The position numbers and the translations under genes were made by a program. A stretch of DNA of 64,000 nt from a phage: the NCBI GenBank assembly GCA_004257845.1, contig GCA_004257845.1_4800.1; one strand, given 5' to 3'. Numbering within the stretch: position 1 is the stretch's first letter; each line of letters starts with the position of its first letter. This document shows, piece after piece, positions 1,875 to 58,500 of the stretch. Under the pieces are notes generated by a model. That model did no database searches. It was not told the origin of the DNA and was given only the letters and a program-made list of their open reading frames with translations.

Positions 1875-1904
1875 ATTCATCGGCAAAGGATTGCCGCGAG
1901 TTTT

Positions 1905-2190
1905 ATACGTATAATGACGTATCATACGTATCAAGTAAGTTATTGTTTTCAAAAGAATCTTACGGATGATACGGATGATACGCGTTGCCGCCGTACTATA
2001 TAGGAATTCAAATAAATTAATTTAAAATTATATATCTAATTTAATTTTATTTTTTTATAAACTCTTATATATGAAAAGTATCCGTATCATCCGTATCATC
2101 CGTAGCACACCAGTGATAGCGCGGCTTATACACCGATACGGATAAAAATACGCCTCATTTTATCCGTATCATCCGTATCACACTAATAAA
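1905..2190. repeat. iteron-like region 1: tandem 9-mers (ACGGATGAT) in direct and inverted orientation flanking an AT-rich core
   Basis: TACGGATGATACGGATGATACGCGT at 1961-1985; inverted copies GTATCCGTATCATCCGTATCATCCGTAG at 2078-2105 and TATCCGTATCATCCGTATCA at 2161-2180; AT-rich stretch about 2000-2070; box CGTATAATGACGTA at 1908-1921. Confidence 0.7.
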
Positions 2191-2237
2191 GGCGCGGCTA
2201 TATCGGTTGTTATACATATTCAAACCATAATTATTGT

Positions 2238-2266
2238 TTGCCTAAGTTTTTTTCATTAGATATAAT
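2238..2266 (+). promoter_or_regulatory. sigma70-like promoter (TTGCCT-17 nt-TATAAT) upstream of scaffold/capsid genes
   Basis: -35 TTGCCT 2238-2243, 17-nt spacer, -10 TATAAT 2261-2266, about 24 nt before start codon at 2290. Confidence 0.5.
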
Positions 2267-2289: not shown

Positions 2290-3708
2290 ATGCGAATGCA
2301 AACGGCACGCGAAATTGACAAAAATGGATTCTTGACGATTATGGGTTGTCCAATTTCGTCATTTGGCATTTTTGATTATTCTGCTGGTCAAGTTGGTCTT
2401 GATGGTGATCCGAATCGCATCGTAAAAGTCTATCGCCCTGAGTCAGCGGTGAAAGACCCCGAAGCGATAGATTCATTCAAAAATATCCCTTTCATCGACA
2501 ATCACGAAATGCTTTCTGGATTTGAAGGTGATGAGGATAACACAGCACCCGAAGAGTATGGAGTTGATGGCGTTCTGACTGGCAATGTTTATTATGACAA
2601 GCCATGGATGCGCGGCGACCTTAAAGTGTTTAGCCGTCGTCTGAAGAAGGCCATTGATTCTGGAAAGGTTGACTTGTCTTTGGGCTATGACTGTGAATTC
2701 ATCATACAGTCTGGAGAGTTTGACGGGCAGCCGTATGAAGTGGTGCAGACAACTCTTCGCGGCAACCACATTGCTCTCGTGGACGTTGGTCGAGTACCAG
2801 GTGCACGGGTGCTGGATGGTCGTTGCTTTGACCATCTTTGTTTGACGACTGTAACACCATCCAACGAGGATTTAGACATGCCAAAACCGTTAAAAGGTAA
2901 AGCGCGTGATAATGCTGTTGAACAGCTGAAATCACTGATCCCTGCGCTCGAACAATTTCTGAATGAAGAGAGCACTGAAGCTGCTCATCAGGACGAAGTT
3001 GAAGTGAAAGCAGAAGAGAAGGACTCAACCGAAAATCGTGAAGAAGTAATGGTTGATCCAGAAGTCAAGGCAGAAGCAGAAGAAACCCCAGAAGGTGAAG
3101 AGAAGTTTGAAGTTGAAACTGAATCTAACGCTGGCGGCGAACTTCCGCAATTGATCAGCCAAATCGAAGCACTTATTGCAAAACTGAAAGGTGGCGCGGT
3201 AGGTGATGAAGAAGAAGTTGAAGCCGAAGTCAAAGACGAAGAAGTTGAAGTCAAGGCTGAAGATGTATCACCTTGCGACAAAGCTGAAGATGTGGTTAGC
3301 GGCCTGCAAAACAGCAACGTAAAGGGGGCTTCGGTCGAAAAAGATGACAAACCGACAAAAGCGGCGAAAGCGTCGCCAGGTCCAGCAAAAGGGGAACACT
3401 CAATGGCATCTGATTCAGCAGTTGCTGCTTTCTACGCTGATTCTGCTCGTAAGAATAGCCTCTACCAGCGCCTGTCTAAAGTTGTTGGTGCCTTTGATCA
3501 TGCAACTATGGACTCCAAGTCCGTAGCGAAATATGGCGCTAAAAAGTTAGGCTTGAAGTGCGTTGATGGCGCTGAGTTTGACGTGGTGGATAACTATCTG
3601 CGCGGCGTTGAACACGGTCAAAAACAGCGTGTAGTCGCAAAACAAAAGGCCGCTGCGGATTCTGCAGCAACTGACGAAGCATTTGAAGCTTGGTTGAAAG
3701 GGGAATAA
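2290..3708 (+). CDS. prohead scaffold / prohead protease-like protein
   Basis: Immediately upstream of capsid gene; long acidic low-complexity central region (EEVEVKAEEKD..., EEVEAEVKDEEVEVKAED) typical of scaffolding proteins; RBS GAGGGTGG before ATG. Confidence 0.45.
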   Translation: MRMQTAREIDKNGFLTIMGCPISSFGIFDYSAGQVGLDGDPNRIVKVYRPESAVKDPEAIDSFKNIPFIDNHEMLSGFEGDEDNTAPEEYGVDGVLTGNVYYDKPWMRGDLKVFSRRLKKAIDSGKVDLSLGYDCEFIIQSGEFDGQPYEVVQTTLRGNHIALVDVGRVPGARVLDGRCFDHLCLTTVTPSNEDLDMPKPLKGKARDNAVEQLKSLIPALEQFLNEESTEAAHQDEVEVKAEEKDSTENREEVMVDPEVKAEAEETPEGEEKFEVETESNAGGELPQLISQIEALIAKLKGGAVGDEEEVEAEVKDEEVEVKAEDVSPCDKAEDVVSGLQNSNVKGASVEKDDKPTKAAKASPGPAKGEHSMASDSAVAAFYADSARKNSLYQRLSKVVGAFDHATMDSKSVAKYGAKKLGLKCVDGAEFDVVDNYLRGVEHGQKQRVVAKQKAAADSAATDEAFEAWLKGE

Positions 3709-49021: not shown

Positions 49022-49106
49022 ATATCAAAAAGGTGAGCTAAATGCTTGCCTTTTCTTTTATCAATATTTATACTCTTTTCATCAATACGAACAAGTGAGG
49101 TGAATT

Positions 49107-50276: not shown

Positions 50277-50348
50277 TTCAAAAAGGTGAGCTAAATGCTT
50301 GCCTTTTTATTTACCTGTATTATACTTAGTTCATCAAGCAAAGGAGAA

Positions 50349-51472: not shown

Positions 51473-51972
51473 AAATCGAACAACTCGAAGCAGTATTGGA
51501 AATGGCTGTTAAAGCAGGCGCAATCAAAAGCTGGCGTCGCGAGAAGTCGGATGACGCCGCGCACTTTTGCCGCAACTTCTATATTGTCGGCAACCTTAAC
51601 GACCACTACACCATCGAGTGGTATACTAATATGATGACGCTTAAGTCGCGCACCATGGAGCTTTGGTGCAATGACATTTGCTTATCCAACACTCATCCAT
51701 CCTACGACGTTGCATTGGCATTCTATCACGGAAGTCATCAACCAGTAGCCCACATTGGTGAGAAGCACGAATACCTGAAGGCGGGACCAGAAGATCCAAT
51801 GGAAGGTTGGATTGAATGGTCTGGCGGCAAGAATCCGGTGCCTGGTAAAAAGGTCATGTTGATGTGGAGGAATGGCGCAAAGTCATCATACGCTTTCAAT
51901 TCAAAAGGATACATATGGACTCACGACGGAAGCACCCATGACATCATCGCTTATCGCGTCGTGGAGGAATAA
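51469..51972 (+). CDS. hypothetical protein with shared C-terminal module
   Basis: C-terminal WIEWSGGKNPVPGKKV...IIAYRVVEE similar to C-terminus of 53118-53537 product. Confidence 0.4.
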   Translation: MKIEQLEAVLEMAVKAGAIKSWRREKSDDAAHFCRNFYIVGNLNDHYTIEWYTNMMTLKSRTMELWCNDICLSNTHPSYDVALAFYHGSHQPVAHIGEKHEYLKAGPEDPMEGWIEWSGGKNPVPGKKVMLMWRNGAKSSYAFNSKGYIWTHDGSTHDIIAYRVVEE

Positions 51973-53121: not shown

Positions 53122-53537
53122 TACAGCGTTACGATGTTGATTATTGCACGCAGCACGCTTGCACTTGTGAAGTTGTAAAGGATGATGAAGGCGGCTATGT
53201 TGAATATGAGGACTATGAATCACTACTCAAGCTTAATGAGTCGCTAACAAAAGAGATTGAGCAATACCGCGAGCGCATCAAAGTCGCTGAAGATATTATC
53301 AAGCTTTTTAGCGAGGCTGTTGAGAAATACAAGGAGCGCAACGTACCGATTAAGGAGGAAGCGTGGACCGTGTGGTTTGGTGGCGTGAATCCGGTGCCTG
53401 GGAAGATGGTTGAGTTTGAATTACTCAACGGTTATAAATCAAAAGGTGCTGTTCCTTCGGATAGTTTGACATGGGATAAAGTCACAAGCCCGACTGGTGC
53501 AAAGATTGTTGCTTATCGGGTCGTTAAGGAGGGGTGA
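53118..53537 (+). CDS. hypothetical protein with shared C-terminal module
   Basis: C-terminal WTVWFGGVNPVPGKMV...IVAYRVVKEG similar to 51469 product. Confidence 0.4.
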   Translation: MIQRYDVDYCTQHACTCEVVKDDEGGYVEYEDYESLLKLNESLTKEIEQYRERIKVAEDIIKLFSEAVEKYKERNVPIKEEAWTVWFGGVNPVPGKMVEFELLNGYKSKGAVPSDSLTWDKVTSPTGAKIVAYRVVKEG

Positions 53538-54312: not shown

Positions 54313-54604
54313 GCGTATAATGACGTAAGATTTGGACCTATCCGTAGTTCACTCCACACACTTCTATGGTGCGCCGCGACTGGGTTCAGTGGTACATCTT
54401 ACGGATGATACGGATGATACGCGTCGCCGCTATACTTTATACAACTTTGAAAAAACAATTAACTCCATTTTGAATTAATTTAAATTAATTTTTTTCTACA
54501 TCCTCATACTTATACTAAACTTATATTTATACGTATTATCCGTAAGATATAAGTAAAAACAAAGACTTGCGGCAATACGGATGATACGTCATGATACGCT
54601 TCGA
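54313..54604. repeat. iteron-like region 2 (diverged paralog of region 1)
   Basis: GCGTATAATGACGTA at 54313-54327; TACGGATGATACGGATGATACGCGT at 54400-54424; AT-rich stretch about 54430-54530; inverted TATTATCCGTAAGAT at 54533-54547; ACGGATGATACGTCATGATACGC at 54578-54600. Confidence 0.7.
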
Positions 54605-54710
54605 CCAGCCAGCAGCGGCTAAGTCATTGATTTGCATAACAAGCGGCGAAAGGGATGGATTTCTTTTATACGTATCAAACAGTACACCACGCACCACGGT
54701 CCGCAATCCT

Positions 54711-56283
54711 ATTTGCACTATGATTTGTGTACGTTTATAGCCATAATGAACATCAATCTGCACTTGAATATAATGTCCATCCATTGTATAATTCACACTA
54801 TTAATTTGCACTATGGGATTTTGCACTATGAGTCAAGATTATGTAGCGATGCCTGAAGACTTTGAAGACCCGCGATTCGCAGAGCACAATCAGGCTTTAT
54901 TCGATGAGTTCATTGACCTTGTTATTCAGGGCCATGACATGCGCGCAGCTTTTGCACTAGTATTTGGAATGGAAGTTGCAACGGATAACTACACTGGCCA
55001 GCGAATCCTTTGCGCACAACGCAATCCGTACTACAAAATGCGCTTCAAAAAGCGTATGGAAGAGATGCCACTCAAGGATTTGTGGAGCGTAAAAGGTGCA
55101 ATTCACAATTTGGTCAAGCTTGTGCGTGATCCAGAAGTCGCGGCGTCAGCCAAGCTTAATGCTATTCGTGAACTGAATATCATCTACGGCATCACGATGA
55201 TTGATGAAAACGGCAATAGTAAAATGGGCCGTTCCATGGACGATTTCTACAAGGATTTTGGAGAGGCAGCCAAAGAAGGTGAGCAATTCTCCCGCCACTA
55301 GCCAATTTGCACTATAAAACGGCCCTAGAACACATTTTCTCCACTTCTAGGGCCATCGGTAATACGACGGGGAAGGTTACAACCGTAAACGCGTTAGAAA
55401 GTGTATTATTATAAGTCATCTTTTAGTCACTTTACGTAACAATTTACGACCTTCAACCGTCCAATCGAACGACTCCACCAGCAGATTTGCACTATAACCT
55501 AAGACGATGCGCCCTTTCTCGTTATCGACCCGCCAACAAGTCTCGAATAGCATTCGATTTGCACTATTAACTATTGCCGCAACTCGCGTAGGATAAGCGC
55601 AATTTGCACTATGGTCGTAAAGGGATAAGGTGCGACCACTTCCGATGGACAACGTAGCGATGAGAATGAGTGTATTCATAAGCCACCAATTTGCACTATG
55701 AAAAGCGACCCCGAAGGGCCGCCATTCGATTAGATAATCTGGAAGGTGTAGGACTTGTTGCCGAACTCGAAGTTTAAGCGTCCAGCTTCCTTAAGCTTCA
55801 TGCGGAAGCGAATGTGCTTGCTATCCGGTAAGCCCAGCGCGGCGAACGCTACGCGGACCGATTTGAACTCGCCTACACCCTCGACCATGACACCGTTACG
55901 GGTAAGACGCTTTTGCGCCACTTCCTTATTATCCCAACTTTTTGCAATACCTTCGCTATTCGAACGGCGATGGGATGGAGTTCCATTTTGCACTACGCAA
56001 TTTGCACTATCGTTTAAACCGCTCTTAACGAAGGCTTCATACTCTTCGTCGGTCATCGCGTCGAGTTCTTCCTGGGTCGGCTCGGACTTTTTAACGACCG
56101 CACGCGCCTTATGCGTTTTTACATCGTTGGGCACTTCCTCGCGCGACTTCGCGTCTGGGATGGGCGACTCGTTGGACGGCTCATCGAGCGCGTTTAAGGA
56201 CTCGATTAACGCTATTACGCGAGTCTCGGCGGTCCGGCGGTCCGCAAATTTTTTGATCGGCTTCGAACCGGAATTTGCATTAT
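54711..56283 (+). repeat. dispersed same-orientation array of 12-bp motif AATTTGCACTAT (at least 11 copies including variants)
   Basis: Copies at about 54711, 54803, 54819, 55304, 55485, 55557, 55601, 55688, 55985, 55999, 56272, all on the + strand; several lie antisense within minus-strand ORFs. Confidence 0.75.
54813..55301 (+). CDS. hypothetical protein
   Basis: ORF; start could be ATG 54813 or 54828 (no clear SD for either); followed by hairpin 55321-55354 (10-bp stem GGCCCTAGAA / TTCTAGGGCC). Confidence 0.4.
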   Translation: MGFCTMSQDYVAMPEDFEDPRFAEHNQALFDEFIDLVIQGHDMRAAFALVFGMEVATDNYTGQRILCAQRNPYYKMRFKKRMEEMPLKDLWSVKGAIHNLVKLVRDPEVAASAKLNAIRELNIIYGITMIDENGNSKMGRSMDDFYKDFGEAAKEGEQFSRH

Positions 56284-56356
56284 AAAATGCAACGAGGTCG
56301 GCGGTCTTAGTTGCGATAACGTCGCCGCTAGTCGAGAAACGATTTAAGCTAACCAT
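55730..56356 (-). CDS. hypothetical protein (CpG-rich island)
   Basis: 208-aa ORF with distinct codon usage; contains antisense motif copies encoding SANCVVQNG. Confidence 0.4.
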   Translation of the reverse strand: MVSLNRFSTSGDVIATKTADLVAFYNANSGSKPIKKFADRRTAETRVIALIESLNALDEPSNESPIPDAKSREEVPNDVKTHKARAVVKKSEPTQEELDAMTDEEYEAFVKSGLNDSANCVVQNGTPSHRRSNSEGIAKSWDNKEVAQKRLTRNGVMVEGVGEFKSVRVAFAALGLPDSKHIRFRMKLKEAGRLNFEFGNKSYTFQII

Positions 56357-56436
56357 AATGAACTCCTATTTGTTAGGGCGCTAGGCGCGAAAGAATTTTA
56401 TTAAAGCGCCGCGCACGACGCTCTAAAAATCCTCTC

Positions 56437-56721
56437 TTACGCTTCGACGAGGGAGAAGGTCTCAAATTCTTCTTCGCCCATAACGAGTAAGATGTTACCG
56501 ATTTCGACCGCTTCGAAGAAGTATCCGTTAACGTTTACTTCGAAGGCTTCGCGGTCCGATTCCGGTAACGCCGCGTAAAGTTTAAAAGCCTCGGCGACCG
56601 TAACCCCACCCGCCTCGATAGTTTGGTCTACGTTCGCGGCGTAGACTTCGGATAAAATTTGTTTTACGCCGTAGTTCTCGACGATAGCGTTACGGATAGA
56701 AGAAACGTTAAGAATAGCCAT
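56437..56721 (-). CDS. hypothetical small protein, paralog A
   Basis: 94 aa; similar to product of 57355-57645 (SIRNAIVE/AIRSARVE, VYxxNVDxTIE, NGxxxxxxEIG). Confidence 0.45.
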   Translation of the reverse strand: MAILNVSSIRNAIVENYGVKQILSEVYAANVDQTIEAGGVTVAEAFKLYAALPESDREAFEVNVNGYFFEAVEIGNILLVMGEEEFETFSLVEA

Positions 56722-56945
56722 TTTAAACTCCTAGTTGGGAGAGGCGTTAACGACCTATTCGTTAACTCATCCCGTCCCGATATGAGTACATTATAATATA
56801 GTGTAGAAAAAAGTAAAGCACTTTTTCGATAAAGATGAGATAAATTATTTTATCTTTTTTCTTTACTTCTTCGTACACTCGCGTATACTTGTTTATATCG
56901 AGACGGGCGATGACCCTTTCTTTTACTACCATCGGGAGTTTTATT

Positions 56946-57248
56946 ATGGCTACTTTAATTTCTTCTCTTCTTACTTACGACGAAGACCGCTTAACCGTCG
57001 CTTCTCTTCTTAAAGCCGTTAACGCAGAATTAGACGGGACCGCTATTAAGGTCCGCGCGTTCGCCTTCGTCGGCCTTTCCTTCGACGATATGAAGTACGT
57101 CGAACGTAGCGCCATCCGCTTCGCGAAGACCGACGACGAAGCCGTTACCCTTATCGAAACCGTAACGCCGCGCGGCGAAGCGCTAATTATCGTCGAGTAT
57201 CTCGATATAGAAGGCTATAAAGCTTATAAACATTTTATCGCAAAATAA
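56946..57248 (+). CDS. hypothetical small protein
   Basis: ATG 56946 preceded by GGGAG; CpG-rich codon usage. Confidence 0.4.
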   Translation: MATLISSLLTYDEDRLTVASLLKAVNAELDGTAIKVRAFAFVGLSFDDMKYVERSAIRFAKTDDEAVTLIETVTPRGEALIIVEYLDIEGYKAYKHFIAK

Positions 57249-57354
57249 CGAAAAGTGCTTTACTTCTTCGTACACTAAGACTATAATGTTTTATATCGAG
57301 AGGGGATGAGGTAGCGAATAGGTCGCTACCCGCCCGACCAACTAGGAGATTATT

Positions 57355-57645
57355 ATGATTACTTTAGCCGCTATCCGTTCCGCTCGCGTCGAGACTTCCG
57401 AAAACTCTAACGTATTTGGCGAAACCTTAGAGAGCGTTTATCTCTCTAACGTAGACGCAACTATCGAATCTATTTATGAGCCGATCAACTTCCTCGACCT
57501 TTACAAGTATCGCGATGAGGACATCGTATCTTGCCGCGTAACCATCAACGGCTTCGTCTATACGATTACCGAAATCGGCGGCGAATATCTCGCGGTCCCG
57601 CAACTCGGCGGCGAAGTAACTTTCTTTAAAATCGTAAGCCTGTAA
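57355..57645 (+). CDS. hypothetical small protein, paralog B
   Basis: 96 aa; similar to product of 56437-56721 but on the opposite strand; RBS AGGAGA. Confidence 0.45.
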   Translation: MITLAAIRSARVETSENSNVFGETLESVYLSNVDATIESIYEPINFLDLYKYRDEDIVSCRVTINGFVYTITEIGGEYLAVPQLGGEVTFFKIVSL

Positions 57646-57656
57646 GGAGAAGGAAG

Positions 57657-57866
57657 ATGACTAATATGAATAATTCTCTTAACGCGCGCGCCCATCGTAC
57701 CGCCGTAATCGATATGTTCCGCGAGCTTAAGGAATTATGCGATAATATGAACGCGATGTTATCCATCGGCGGCTGGGGATACGAAGAAGAGGTTAAATAC
57801 GCGGTTATGCGTCGCCGTCGCGATAACGTCCTTGGGCAAATTAAACGCGCCGGATTATTCCTTTAA
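57657..57866 (+). CDS. hypothetical small basic protein
   Basis: ORF preceded by GGAGAAGGAAG. Confidence 0.4.
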   Translation: MTNMNNSLNARAHRTAVIDMFRELKELCDNMNAMLSIGGWGYEEEVKYAVMRRRRDNVLGQIKRAGLFL

Positions 57867-57892
57867 TTATAATTACCAACAGTTACTAATAG

Positions 57893-57914
57893 GCCGCGCT
57901 TAGTCGCGGCTTTT
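57893..57914 (+). terminator. rho-independent terminator
   Basis: GCCGCG (57893-57898), loop CTTAGT, CGCGGC (57905-57910), then TTTTCTT. Confidence 0.6.
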
Positions 57915-58036
57915 CTTCGCCCCTATCTCGATGCGCTTCTCCGCGAAAACTCCTTTATCCTTCCCTTCGTCGTCGCATAATCTTCGTCGAGATGCTCCTT
58001 AGTTCGTATAACGGGTATTACGTTAAATGGAGAACA

Positions 58037-58110
58037 TCGCGTAAGTCCTTGTTTTATATAGACACCTATATCGGACCGTTAGGGCGGGTCGCGTAAGTCG
58101 TTGTTTTATA
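58037..58110 (+). repeat. 22-bp direct repeat pair TCGCGTAAGTC(C/G)TTGTTTTATA
   Basis: Copies at 58037-58058 and 58089-58110, one mismatch, in a non-coding CpG-rich stretch. Confidence 0.6.
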
Positions 58111-58386
58111 AAGGCGCAAAACTTTCCCTTCGTTCCGAACTAAAACGAGGAATATGCCGACCCTTCGTCCGAAAATAGTACGCATGCGAAATTACATGCA
58201 TCTCGAATAATTCCCACCGATATTATCCTACAAGCAATCATTCTCTTTCGAATCATTATGCTTCATATTATTATGCGTCGAATCATTCGCTTTCGAATTG
58301 TAACGCTGGAAACTGTAACGGCGATTGATTATTGCGTTCGTGTGGTTTTTAGGGCATGGGTCTTTTGGTGCGTTTTGGTACTTGAT

Positions 58387-58500
58387 GAAATTTGCAGTAC
58401 ACTAATCAAAATACGACACATTTGGTCCACTAACTTTTCAAAGAAAAAGTCCTGGACAGTACCGTACTATTTTGTACCCACAGGAAATTTGCAGTACACT
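58387..58500 (+). repeat. two exact 17-bp copies GAAATTTGCAGTACACT
   Basis: 58387-58403 and 58484-58500; share AATTTGCA core with the upstream motif array. Confidence 0.6.

Follow-up and report, generated by a model that had tools for sequence, protein, structure and literature searches.

Several phage packaging sites are organised around repeats: in the pac site of P1, the pacL-pacC-pacR region of SPP1 and the cosB site of lambda, repeated terminase-binding elements flank or adjoin the cleavage site. The P1 pac site presents hexamer repeats on both sides of its cleavage region, and lambda cosB combines the gpNu1 sites R1-R3 with an IHF site, beside cosN. The pac sites of T4 lie in genes 16 and 19. 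Two-copy iteron origins are found in SPP1 (oriL/oriR) and P4 (ori/crr), and the ends of T7 DNA carry short repeat arrays by the terminal repeat, with phiOL/phiOR elements that resemble the primary origin. A review in which cosB is also mentioned described the recognition of two apposed pac sites by two stacked rings of the T4 small terminase protein (TerS), referred to as 'twin-ring pac synapsis' (PMC9611059). Here, we report on two paralogous iteron modules, region 1 (site B) and region 2 (site A), carried in a 64,000-nucleotide stretch of phage DNA (contig GCA_004257845.1_4800.1 of assembly GCA_004257845.1), which as a whole is called the window and provides the coordinates used below. Region 2 is probably the packaging-initiation and terminus-generating site, at which the terminase would recognise and cleave the DNA, and region 1 its conserved paralogue. 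Region 2 was considered a packaging and terminus site first of all because the left end of related genomes lies within its core and the next gene encodes TerS.

As in the pac sites of P1 and SPP1, short repeats, here only predicted to be bound, are placed on both sides of a bent or AT-rich central cleavage region, and the site is found in or beside the gene of the terminase small subunit. Moreover, as in headful systems, the same module is a pac site in Pbunavirus relatives (PMC10913387). Unlike the P1 and SPP1 sites, however, the cut in Wifcevirus, Kylevirus and Myosmarvirus produces the fixed end of a direct terminal repeat (DTR) of 3.6-3.9 kb, together with a sequence-defined right end, and not a permuted genome; the iterons are contiguous 9-mers, and a full second copy of the site is found elsewhere in the genome. 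With lambda cosB the locus shares multiple repeats in both orientations (here candidate TerS sites) and a bend, near the cleavage site and the terminase genes, but here the repeats flank the cut, nothing points to cohesive ends, a single IHF-like match was found nearby (54620-54632), and the site is duplicated.

Similarly to T4, two homologous terminase-site-like sequences are present per genome, several kb apart and bracketing terminase genes, and the C-terminal helix of the TerS type found in phage E217 has been proposed to promote higher-order ring stacking or oligomers (PMC9611059). In contrast to T4, which has no defined ends, these phages carry elaborate non-coding modules of 300-400 bp, 16-20 kb apart and conserved over several genera, and both their binding and their bridging by TerS are hypothetical. 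The SPP1 and P4 origins resemble the present arrangement in having two dispersed iteron clusters beside an AT-rich stretch, kept similar within the genome; they differ in that one copy here holds the packaging cleavage site and abuts terS, and no cognate initiator gene is annotated. Like T7, these are DTR phages with short repeat arrays at the repeat boundary and an internal similar element at 15-25% of the genome length, whereas the T7 modules are built on promoters of the phage RNA polymerase and here no phage RNA polymerase is present and the iterons are of a protein-binding type.

A predicted genome end within site A

The DNA of the window was assigned to Wifcevirus, a genus of Escherichia coli myoviruses with genomes of about 68 kb, and its site A was 94-97% identical to those of phages WFH, ECML-117, Bas101 and Mansfield. 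The genus is distantly related to the Pseudomonas Pbunavirus group (PMC11990801). For WFC and WFH, Korf et al. described terminal repeats of about 3.7 kb (PMC6563267); the records of both phages hold the two DTR copies and start at ...AATTAACTCC / ATTTT (...TTAACTCC / ATTTT), which corresponds to 54466/54467 of the window. The record of Mansfield, from another group, was opened at a DTR boundary predicted by PhageTerm (PMC6753283), and its first base is also the equivalent of 54467. This predicted cut site is located inside the AT-rich core of site A, with the tandem iterons 42 nt to its left and the inverted ones 61 nt to its right. The TerS gene starts 361 nt downstream of the cut, and its product matched the decameric TerS of the Pbunavirus E217 (PDB 7UXE; PMC9611059). 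The TerS gene adjoined site A in every lineage examined.

The right end of the DTR was placed at GGGCATGGGTCTTT / TGGTGCG (58365/58366), identical in WFH and Mansfield, where it had been independently determined; in WFC it falls 81 nt further, at 58446, and the right end of Pantoea phage Kyle is found at the homologous place. Iterons were sought at the right DTR boundary of the window and none were found, so that regions 1 and 2 are not the two copies of the DTR.

Variation among the Wifceviruses also delimited the site. In the WFC-type phages, the homology to the window begins exactly at the iteron pair at 54400, and the DNA to the left of this pair is non-homologous, yet again carries TACGTCATGATACGTCATG, ATCCGTAAG and GCCGCG. 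The iterons of site A and the 15 nt at the cut, AATTAACTCCATTTT, were invariant in 8 phages while adjacent DNA was replaced. The GC clamp CGCCGCT would not be strictly required, because it is itself replaced in the WFC-type phages. The inverted iterons TATACGTATTATCCGTAAG presented one substitution in Mansfield and two, at their 5' edge, in the WFC-type pair.

Two further repeats were observed in and beside the DTR. The motif AAATTTGCAGTACAC occurred only twice in the window, at 58388-58402 and 58485-58499, the first copy beginning 23 nt downstream of the WFH/Mansfield-type right end (58365/58366) and the second 39 nt downstream of the WFC-type one (58446/58447); in Kyle, the right end at the homologous place precedes AATTTCACAGTACAC. 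This motif is a candidate recognition element for the right-end cut. The 10-mer TTTGCACTAT, unrelated to the iterons, was present in 9 exact and 3 near copies, all on the plus strand, between 54712 and 56283, that is, within the DTR in the first ~1.8 kb past the genome end, spanning TerS and two genes of the minus strand. The rest of the 64 kb held no copy, whether exact or with one mismatch, against about 0.1 exact copies expected. The array was conserved in WFC and Mansfield, and Kyle has arrays of TTGCACTAC and TTCGCACTA at the same place.

Paralogy of sites A and B

A preliminary description of this DNA had presented region 2 as a second, diverged copy of the architecture of region 1, and in fact all the elements that it listed were found in both regions at the positions that it gave and in the same order (Table 1). 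These comprise the identical 14-mer box CGTATAATGACGTA, the 25-mer TACGGATGATACGGATGATACGCGT with a GCCGC clamp directly after it, the core sequence AATTAATTTAAA (at 2015 and 54473), the inverted iteron copies and the further direct ones. The identity around the 25-mer extends to 29 nt (ATCTTACGG...CGCGT). Pairwise alignment revealed that the likeness goes well past the 25-mer: the Smith-Waterman score of region 1 against region 2 was 95, against 21.3 +/- 2.7 in dinucleotide shuffles (z=27), and local alignment of the flanks without the 29-mer gave z=6.6 on the left and z=5.5 on the right, the latter from a gapped alignment of ~120 nt running from the AT-rich core to the inverted iterons. In a scan of the window for shared 8-mers, region 1 was the single best match to region 2, with 100 shared positions (mean 6.6, sd 7.1), and 13 of the 19 window copies of the 7-mer TACGGAT fell within the two regions of ~0.4 kb. 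The two regions are thus true paralogues, and both copies were present at the same places in 29/29 Wifcevirus records. An Rfam scan of the whole window returned no RNA family, which makes an RNA element unlikely.

The genomic setting of the two sites was revised by comparison with Bas101. The first letters of the window fall within the head-morphogenesis gene and its last ones come right before the large terminase gene, and from this gene order the regions are ~16 kb apart across the window split, and not only 52.4 kb apart as in the linear record. The bracketing of late and early gene sets that had been proposed is therefore an artefact of the linear window. On the real map, the DNA between the sites comprises the terminal repeat, a tail-fibre gene, the large terminase, the portal and head-accessory genes, and region 1 is found about 16 kb inside the genome from the left end.

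Site A occupies an 841-nt non-coding gap, and site B a 415-nt gap between a terminator-like hairpin and a promoter. Within the genus, site B was nearly invariant, with two exceptions: the tandem iterons of Bas101 have exactly one 9-bp unit fewer, and Mansfield carries a TACGTAT variant. Copy-number changes in whole 9-bp units, together with the invariance of the iterons, are the behaviour that would be expected of protein-binding repeats.

The octamer GCGCGGCT, two copies of which fall in region 1, was overrepresented in the window, with 18 copies against 2.3 +/- 1.5 expected from shuffles (for example at 2119, 2192, 8047, 13221, 18619, 21494, 45502 and 47006), as was the hexamer CGCGGC/GCCGCG, with 101 copies against about 31 expected. 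The excess of GCGCGGCT and CGCGGC could reflect a terminator stem, a codon effect or a recognition motif.

Table 1. Elements of sites A and B, adjoining genes and DNA ends in the window
Feature	Position	Strand	Basis or remark
Site B (region 1)
Terminator-like hairpin ending the upstream operon, right before site B	1881..1896	+	consensus scan only
Left iteron-variant box, three TACGTAT-type units (includes CGTATAATGACGTA, 1908-1921)	1904..1935	-	sequence
Tandem iterons, identical to 54400-54424	1961..1985	+	sequence
AT-rich core, 89.5% A+T	1994..2079	.	composition
Three inverted iterons	2080..2106	-	perfect 22-nt inverted repeat with 1961-1982
Right part of site B	2119..2199	.	GCGCGGCT 2119-2126; direct iteron 2135-2145; two inverted iterons 2162-2181; GCGCGGCT 2192-2199
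Sigma-70-like promoter TTGCCT-17-TATAAT of the head-maturation protease operon	2238..2266	+	consensus scan only
Head-maturation protease gene (DUF2213), conserved right neighbour of site B	2290..3708	+	Pfam PF09979, E=5e-35; relatives annotated so
Site A (region 2)
Left degenerate iteron box CGTATAATGACGTA	54314..54327	-	minus strand reads TACGTCATTA/TACGC iteron variants; identical at 1908-1921
Single inverted iteron CTATCCGTAG	54338..54347	-	invariant in Wifcevirus alignment even beside non-homologous flanks
GC-rich element ATGGTGCGCCGCGACTGGG, includes GCCGCG	54366..54384	.	19-mer also in site A of Serratia phage MyoSmar
Tandem 9-bp iterons TACGGATGA x2 and partial TACGCGT	54400..54424	+	identical 25-mer at 1961-1985
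GC clamp CGCCGCT	54425..54431	.	replaced in WFC-type phages
AT-rich core, phased A/T tracts	54432..54528	.	82.5% A+T vs 53.8% in the window; aligns with region 1 core
Inferred left virion DNA end / DTR start (...TTAACTCC / ATTTTGAATT...)	54466..54467	.	homology to WFH, WFC, Mansfield
Inverted iterons TATACGTATTATCCGTAAG	54528..54546	-	kept in 8/8 aligned Wifceviruses
GCGGC element CTTGCGGCAA right of core	54566..54575	+	(T/C)GCGGC(A) recurs there in every lineage
Second direct iteron array TACGGATGA TACGTCATGA TACGCTT	54576..54601	+	genus-conserved
Outlying inverted iteron variant TATACGTATCAA	54667..54678	-	sequence match
Two overlapping sigma-70-like promoters before TerS, 10/12 matches each	54747..54792	+	consensus scan only
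Small terminase (TerS) gene	54828..55301	+	phmmer match to PDB 7UXE_A 'Small terminase', E=6e-34; Mansfield orthologue annotated TerS
Direct terminal repeat, predicted for this phage	54467..58365	+	3,899 bp

Conservation of the two-site layout in other genera

The two-site layout, with site A before the TerS gene and site B before the head-maturation protease gene, was found in five genera, represented by Wifcevirus, Kylevirus, Myosmarvirus, Pbunavirus and a Salmonella phage, the relatives compared encoding diverged TerS proteins with 30-43% identity to that of the window. The iteron sequence differed by lineage while the layout was constant: the Wifcevirus iteron is TACGGATGA, and those of the other lineages are GGAATAACC in Pantoea phage Kyle (Kylevirus), CTTACTTTTC / TTTTCGTTTT in Serratia phage MyoSmar (Myosmarvirus), GGTAATTTG in the Pbunaviruses Pa193 and JG024 and ATATAACGG / AATATCGG in Salmonella phage PCSE1. 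In all the lineages examined, the core was preceded by a GCCGC(G) element and followed by a GCGGC element. Although MyoSmar belongs to a different genus and has other iterons, it shares the 19-mer ATGGTGCGCCGCGACTGGG with Wifcevirus.

Known termini or pac read-starts fell within the core of site A in 4/5 genera, no terminus being known for PCSE1, and the distance to TerS, 361 nt in Wifcevirus, was 356-601 nt in the other four genera. Kyle has a DTR of 3,603 bp that begins, at its left end, within the core of site A and 356 nt ahead of TerS, and in MyoSmar the DTR boundary given by PhageTerm is in site A, 387 nt before TerS. For JG024, Ipoutcha et al. mapped the start of 36 among 161 long reads to 59,376 +/- 5 and found a matching pac restriction fragment (PMC10913387). 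The base at which these reads start is position 1 of the Pa193 record (...CAGCGAAAAT / CGATTGC), and it is located in site A, 40 nt past the left iterons (42 nt in Wifcevirus) and 601 nt upstream of TerS. Because the JG024 read-starts fall in site A with this Wifcevirus-like geometry, site A appears to be used in two ways, as a headful pac site in Pbunavirus and as the fixed end of the long DTR in Wifcevirus, Kylevirus and Myosmarvirus.

Site B occupied the same syntenic place in at least five genera and evolved in concert with site A, and it was not reported as a virion end in any record. In the three whole genomes tested, it was in each case the best genome-wide match to site A. Sites A and B of Pa193 also have several non-iteron blocks in common, and site B of Kyle resembles site A even across the cut position. 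In PCSE1, whose site B lies in the gap before the protease gene, each site consists of direct iterons, a GC clamp, an AT-rich core and inverted iterons, and all 10 genomic copies of ATATAACG are found within the two sites. The same design was observed in metagenomic relatives, upstream of TerS or upstream of the protease. In phages of 40-46 kb that encode more distant homologues of the protease, this architecture was absent. When site B of two metagenomic lineages was sought by scanning IMG/VR for their iteron patterns, only site A was retrieved in the target contigs.

Proposed function of the two sites and alternative explanations

In the mechanism that we favour, the terminase would recognise a composite site in which 9-bp iterons (TACGGATGA and TACGTAT variants) in opposed orientations, together with GCCGC/GCGGC elements, are arranged around a bendable AT-rich core, and it would cut within this core at 54466/54467, generating the left virion DNA end and the start of the ~3.9-kb DTR. 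The iterons would most likely be the recognition elements of a ring-shaped TerS, which, once bound, would bring the nuclease of the large terminase to the core. TerS is the foremost candidate for the binding protein because its gene is adjacent in every lineage, the protein forms a ring with helix-turn-helix domains, and the repeats are contiguous in a 9-bp phase; we infer that it binds the iterons. An indirect pointer to recognition by the terminase is that the iterons change together with the lineage. At site B, the protein that binds site A would probably assemble a second time. Site B could act as a synapsis partner or packaging sensor, as a regulatory or titration site before the capsid operon, or as an origin or dual origin-plus-pac element.

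A broader scheme, which we offer tentatively and regard as rather unlikely, is that of a two-site system in Pbunavirus/Wifcevirus-like myoviruses. One protein, probably the TerS ring, would act both on the end-forming site and on its paralogue before the head-protease/capsid operon, and the pairing of the sites or nicking at the second one would license packaging, prime the duplication of the 3.7-kb repeat, or couple capsid expression to the availability of terminase.

Several observations weigh against site A as a packaging site recognised by TerS. A pure packaging role leaves unexplained a second full copy that is conserved 16-20 kb away, that in Kyle includes even the cut-site context and that is not reported as a genome end. 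According to the review already mentioned, which does not name the substrate used, E217 TerS did not appreciably bind DNA in vitro (PMC9611059). Other proteins could bind the repeats instead, namely the VirE-type primase and a 208-aa protein encoded next to TerS in most lineages examined. The end of this phage was transferred by homology from relatives that are 94-97% identical. Finally, the literature on Pbunavirus ends is contradictory (PMC12390725; PMC3008698), and a fixed end of PB1-like phages was placed about 7.5 kb upstream of the PB1 start (Essoh 2015, PMC4482731), in conflict with the JG024 data; it was given less weight than these because the authors themselves called it tentative.

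The preliminary description had interpreted the modules as generic regulatory or origin-like iteron elements. The iterons and the AT-rich core on which this was based are real, whereas the presence of the left genome end of relatives in the core of region 2, with TerS as the next gene, points to a more specific role. Nevertheless, the two modules may be considered as iteron-type replication origins, either two origins or one origin and a cis partner, bound by an initiator such as a VirE/D5-like primase-helicase, with the packaging cut placed in, or coupled to, the meltable AT-rich region. We consider this explanation unlikely, even if the architecture is textbook-like, with direct and inverted iterons, a core of 82-90% A+T and GC clamps, and two copies per genome recall oriL/oriR of SPP1 and ori/crr of P4. 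An origin role would also account for the second copy, which never serves as a virion end, and the authors of the SCUT-S1 genome stated that the AT-rich region of their predicted pac site 'could be a replication origin' (PMC6521218).

The position of the primase bears on this explanation in both directions. In MyoSmar, a gene of the VirE-type primase family directly abuts site A on its upstream side, and in Pbunavirus and PCSE1 the first annotated gene before site A is labelled as a DNA primase. In Wifcevirus, by contrast, the primase is set apart from site A by small genes that cover about 4 kb, and it is TerS that keeps its place beside the site in all lineages. Moreover, no initiator gene was annotated in the comparison of the genes of the window and Bas101, and no DnaA box with up to one mismatch was found in either site, the IHF-like match cited above being the only one of its kind nearby. 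The GC and AT skew profile of the window gave no origin signal and followed the direction of transcription, with GC skew marking neither site (see also PMC12390725). In addition, the one property of site A that has been measured, in four genera, is a DNA end. A dual origin-plus-pac role for site A may nonetheless be considered.

An operator function appears more improbable still. The iteron arrays would then be operator or enhancer arrays of a phage transcription factor acting on the downstream sigma-70-like promoters of TerS and of the head protease/capsid operon, and the genome end would be incidental. In agreement with this, each module is found just upstream of a sigma-70-like promoter with 10/12 matches, site B lies right after a terminator-like hairpin (the relative WFH is alone in having a terminator annotated for site A), packaging and head genes come after each of the two modules in all lineages, and a small protein of a PHROG 'transcriptional regulator' family is encoded in the DTR (57657-57866). 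However, modules of 300-400 bp with an AT-rich spacer of ~90 nt are far above the usual operator size, the last iterons are placed 60-150 nt upstream of the -35 elements, and the termini of four genera share one relative position in the core, some 40 nt past the left iterons in those genera for which it was measured, an agreement that can hardly be incidental. An assembly or terminal-repeat artefact, in which the copies would be two genome ends or the product of a mis-join, would fit the coincidence of region 2 with the terminal-repeat boundary, but it can be dismissed, as the preliminary description had already held for an assembly duplication, given that the DTR (54467-58365) excludes region 1, the flanks are unrelated, the copies are diverged with only the 29-nt block identical and patchy similarity beyond it, and both are present in 29 independent Wifcevirus records and in four other genera.

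Neighbouring genes

The 208-aa protein is encoded on the minus strand at 55730-56356, belongs to phrog_4730, of unknown function, and had no Pfam or PDB match. By tblastn it was found in 9/14 related genomes or contigs, including Kyle, MyoSmar, Pbunavirus and PCSE1, the last with two paralogues; 4 of the 5 genomes or contigs without a match are 5-kb metagenomic loci. Among its homologues, the 120 matches listed of 309 were all 97-100% identical, which is too little divergence to support a structural model.

The regulator-like product encoded in the DTR corresponds to a 69-aa open reading frame (ORF) on the plus strand (57657-57866; PHROG 10377, 'transcriptional regulator', E=2e-37), which is unannotated in the WFH and WFC records. 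Apart from this and TerS, Pfam, PHROGs and PDB searches of the neighbouring small ORFs gave nothing informative. In PCSE1, an unannotated long ORF spans the start of the circular record (about 68552-69920 and 1-170), just upstream of site A; its product begins MSDKQSYYDG and carries the P-loop-like sequence GHQGVGKS.

Diverged short direct repeats were observed among the small early genes of the window (51801-51854 and 53357-53410; 49025-49068 and 50278-50321), which suggests paralogous small genes or repeated terminator or ribosome-binding-site cassettes.

Significance for Wifcevirus and related phages

Public records already give the TerS annotation as well as the coordinates of the DTR in WFH, WFC and Mansfield, and a pac site in an AT-rich region had been noted in the SCUT-S1 paper (PMC6521218). 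In the literature searched, no description was found of the iteron architecture around the end or of its conservation in five genera with changing iterons, nor of the coincidence of the JG024 pac reads with site A or of a conserved second copy before the protease gene. The finding is most likely a type of terminase recognition site with a conserved, unexplained duplication.

The phages considered here are kin to the Pbunavirus group used in Pseudomonas phage therapy, and among them are E. coli phages reported as extremely fast replicators (PMC11990801). The candidate recognition site has now become concrete: its repeats are defined, its cut position is mapped and five genera offer natural variants of its specificity. 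TerS-DNA recognition is therefore directly testable. Knowledge of the true ends has, in addition, practical value for the rebooting and engineering of these phages. Furthermore, closely similar machinery and sites are associated with headful packaging in one genus and with a fixed DTR of 3.6-3.9 kb in three, which provides a natural experiment on the generation of long repeats. If the two-site system outlined above were true, the 'pac synapsis' idea developed for T4 would be extended to phages with defined sites.

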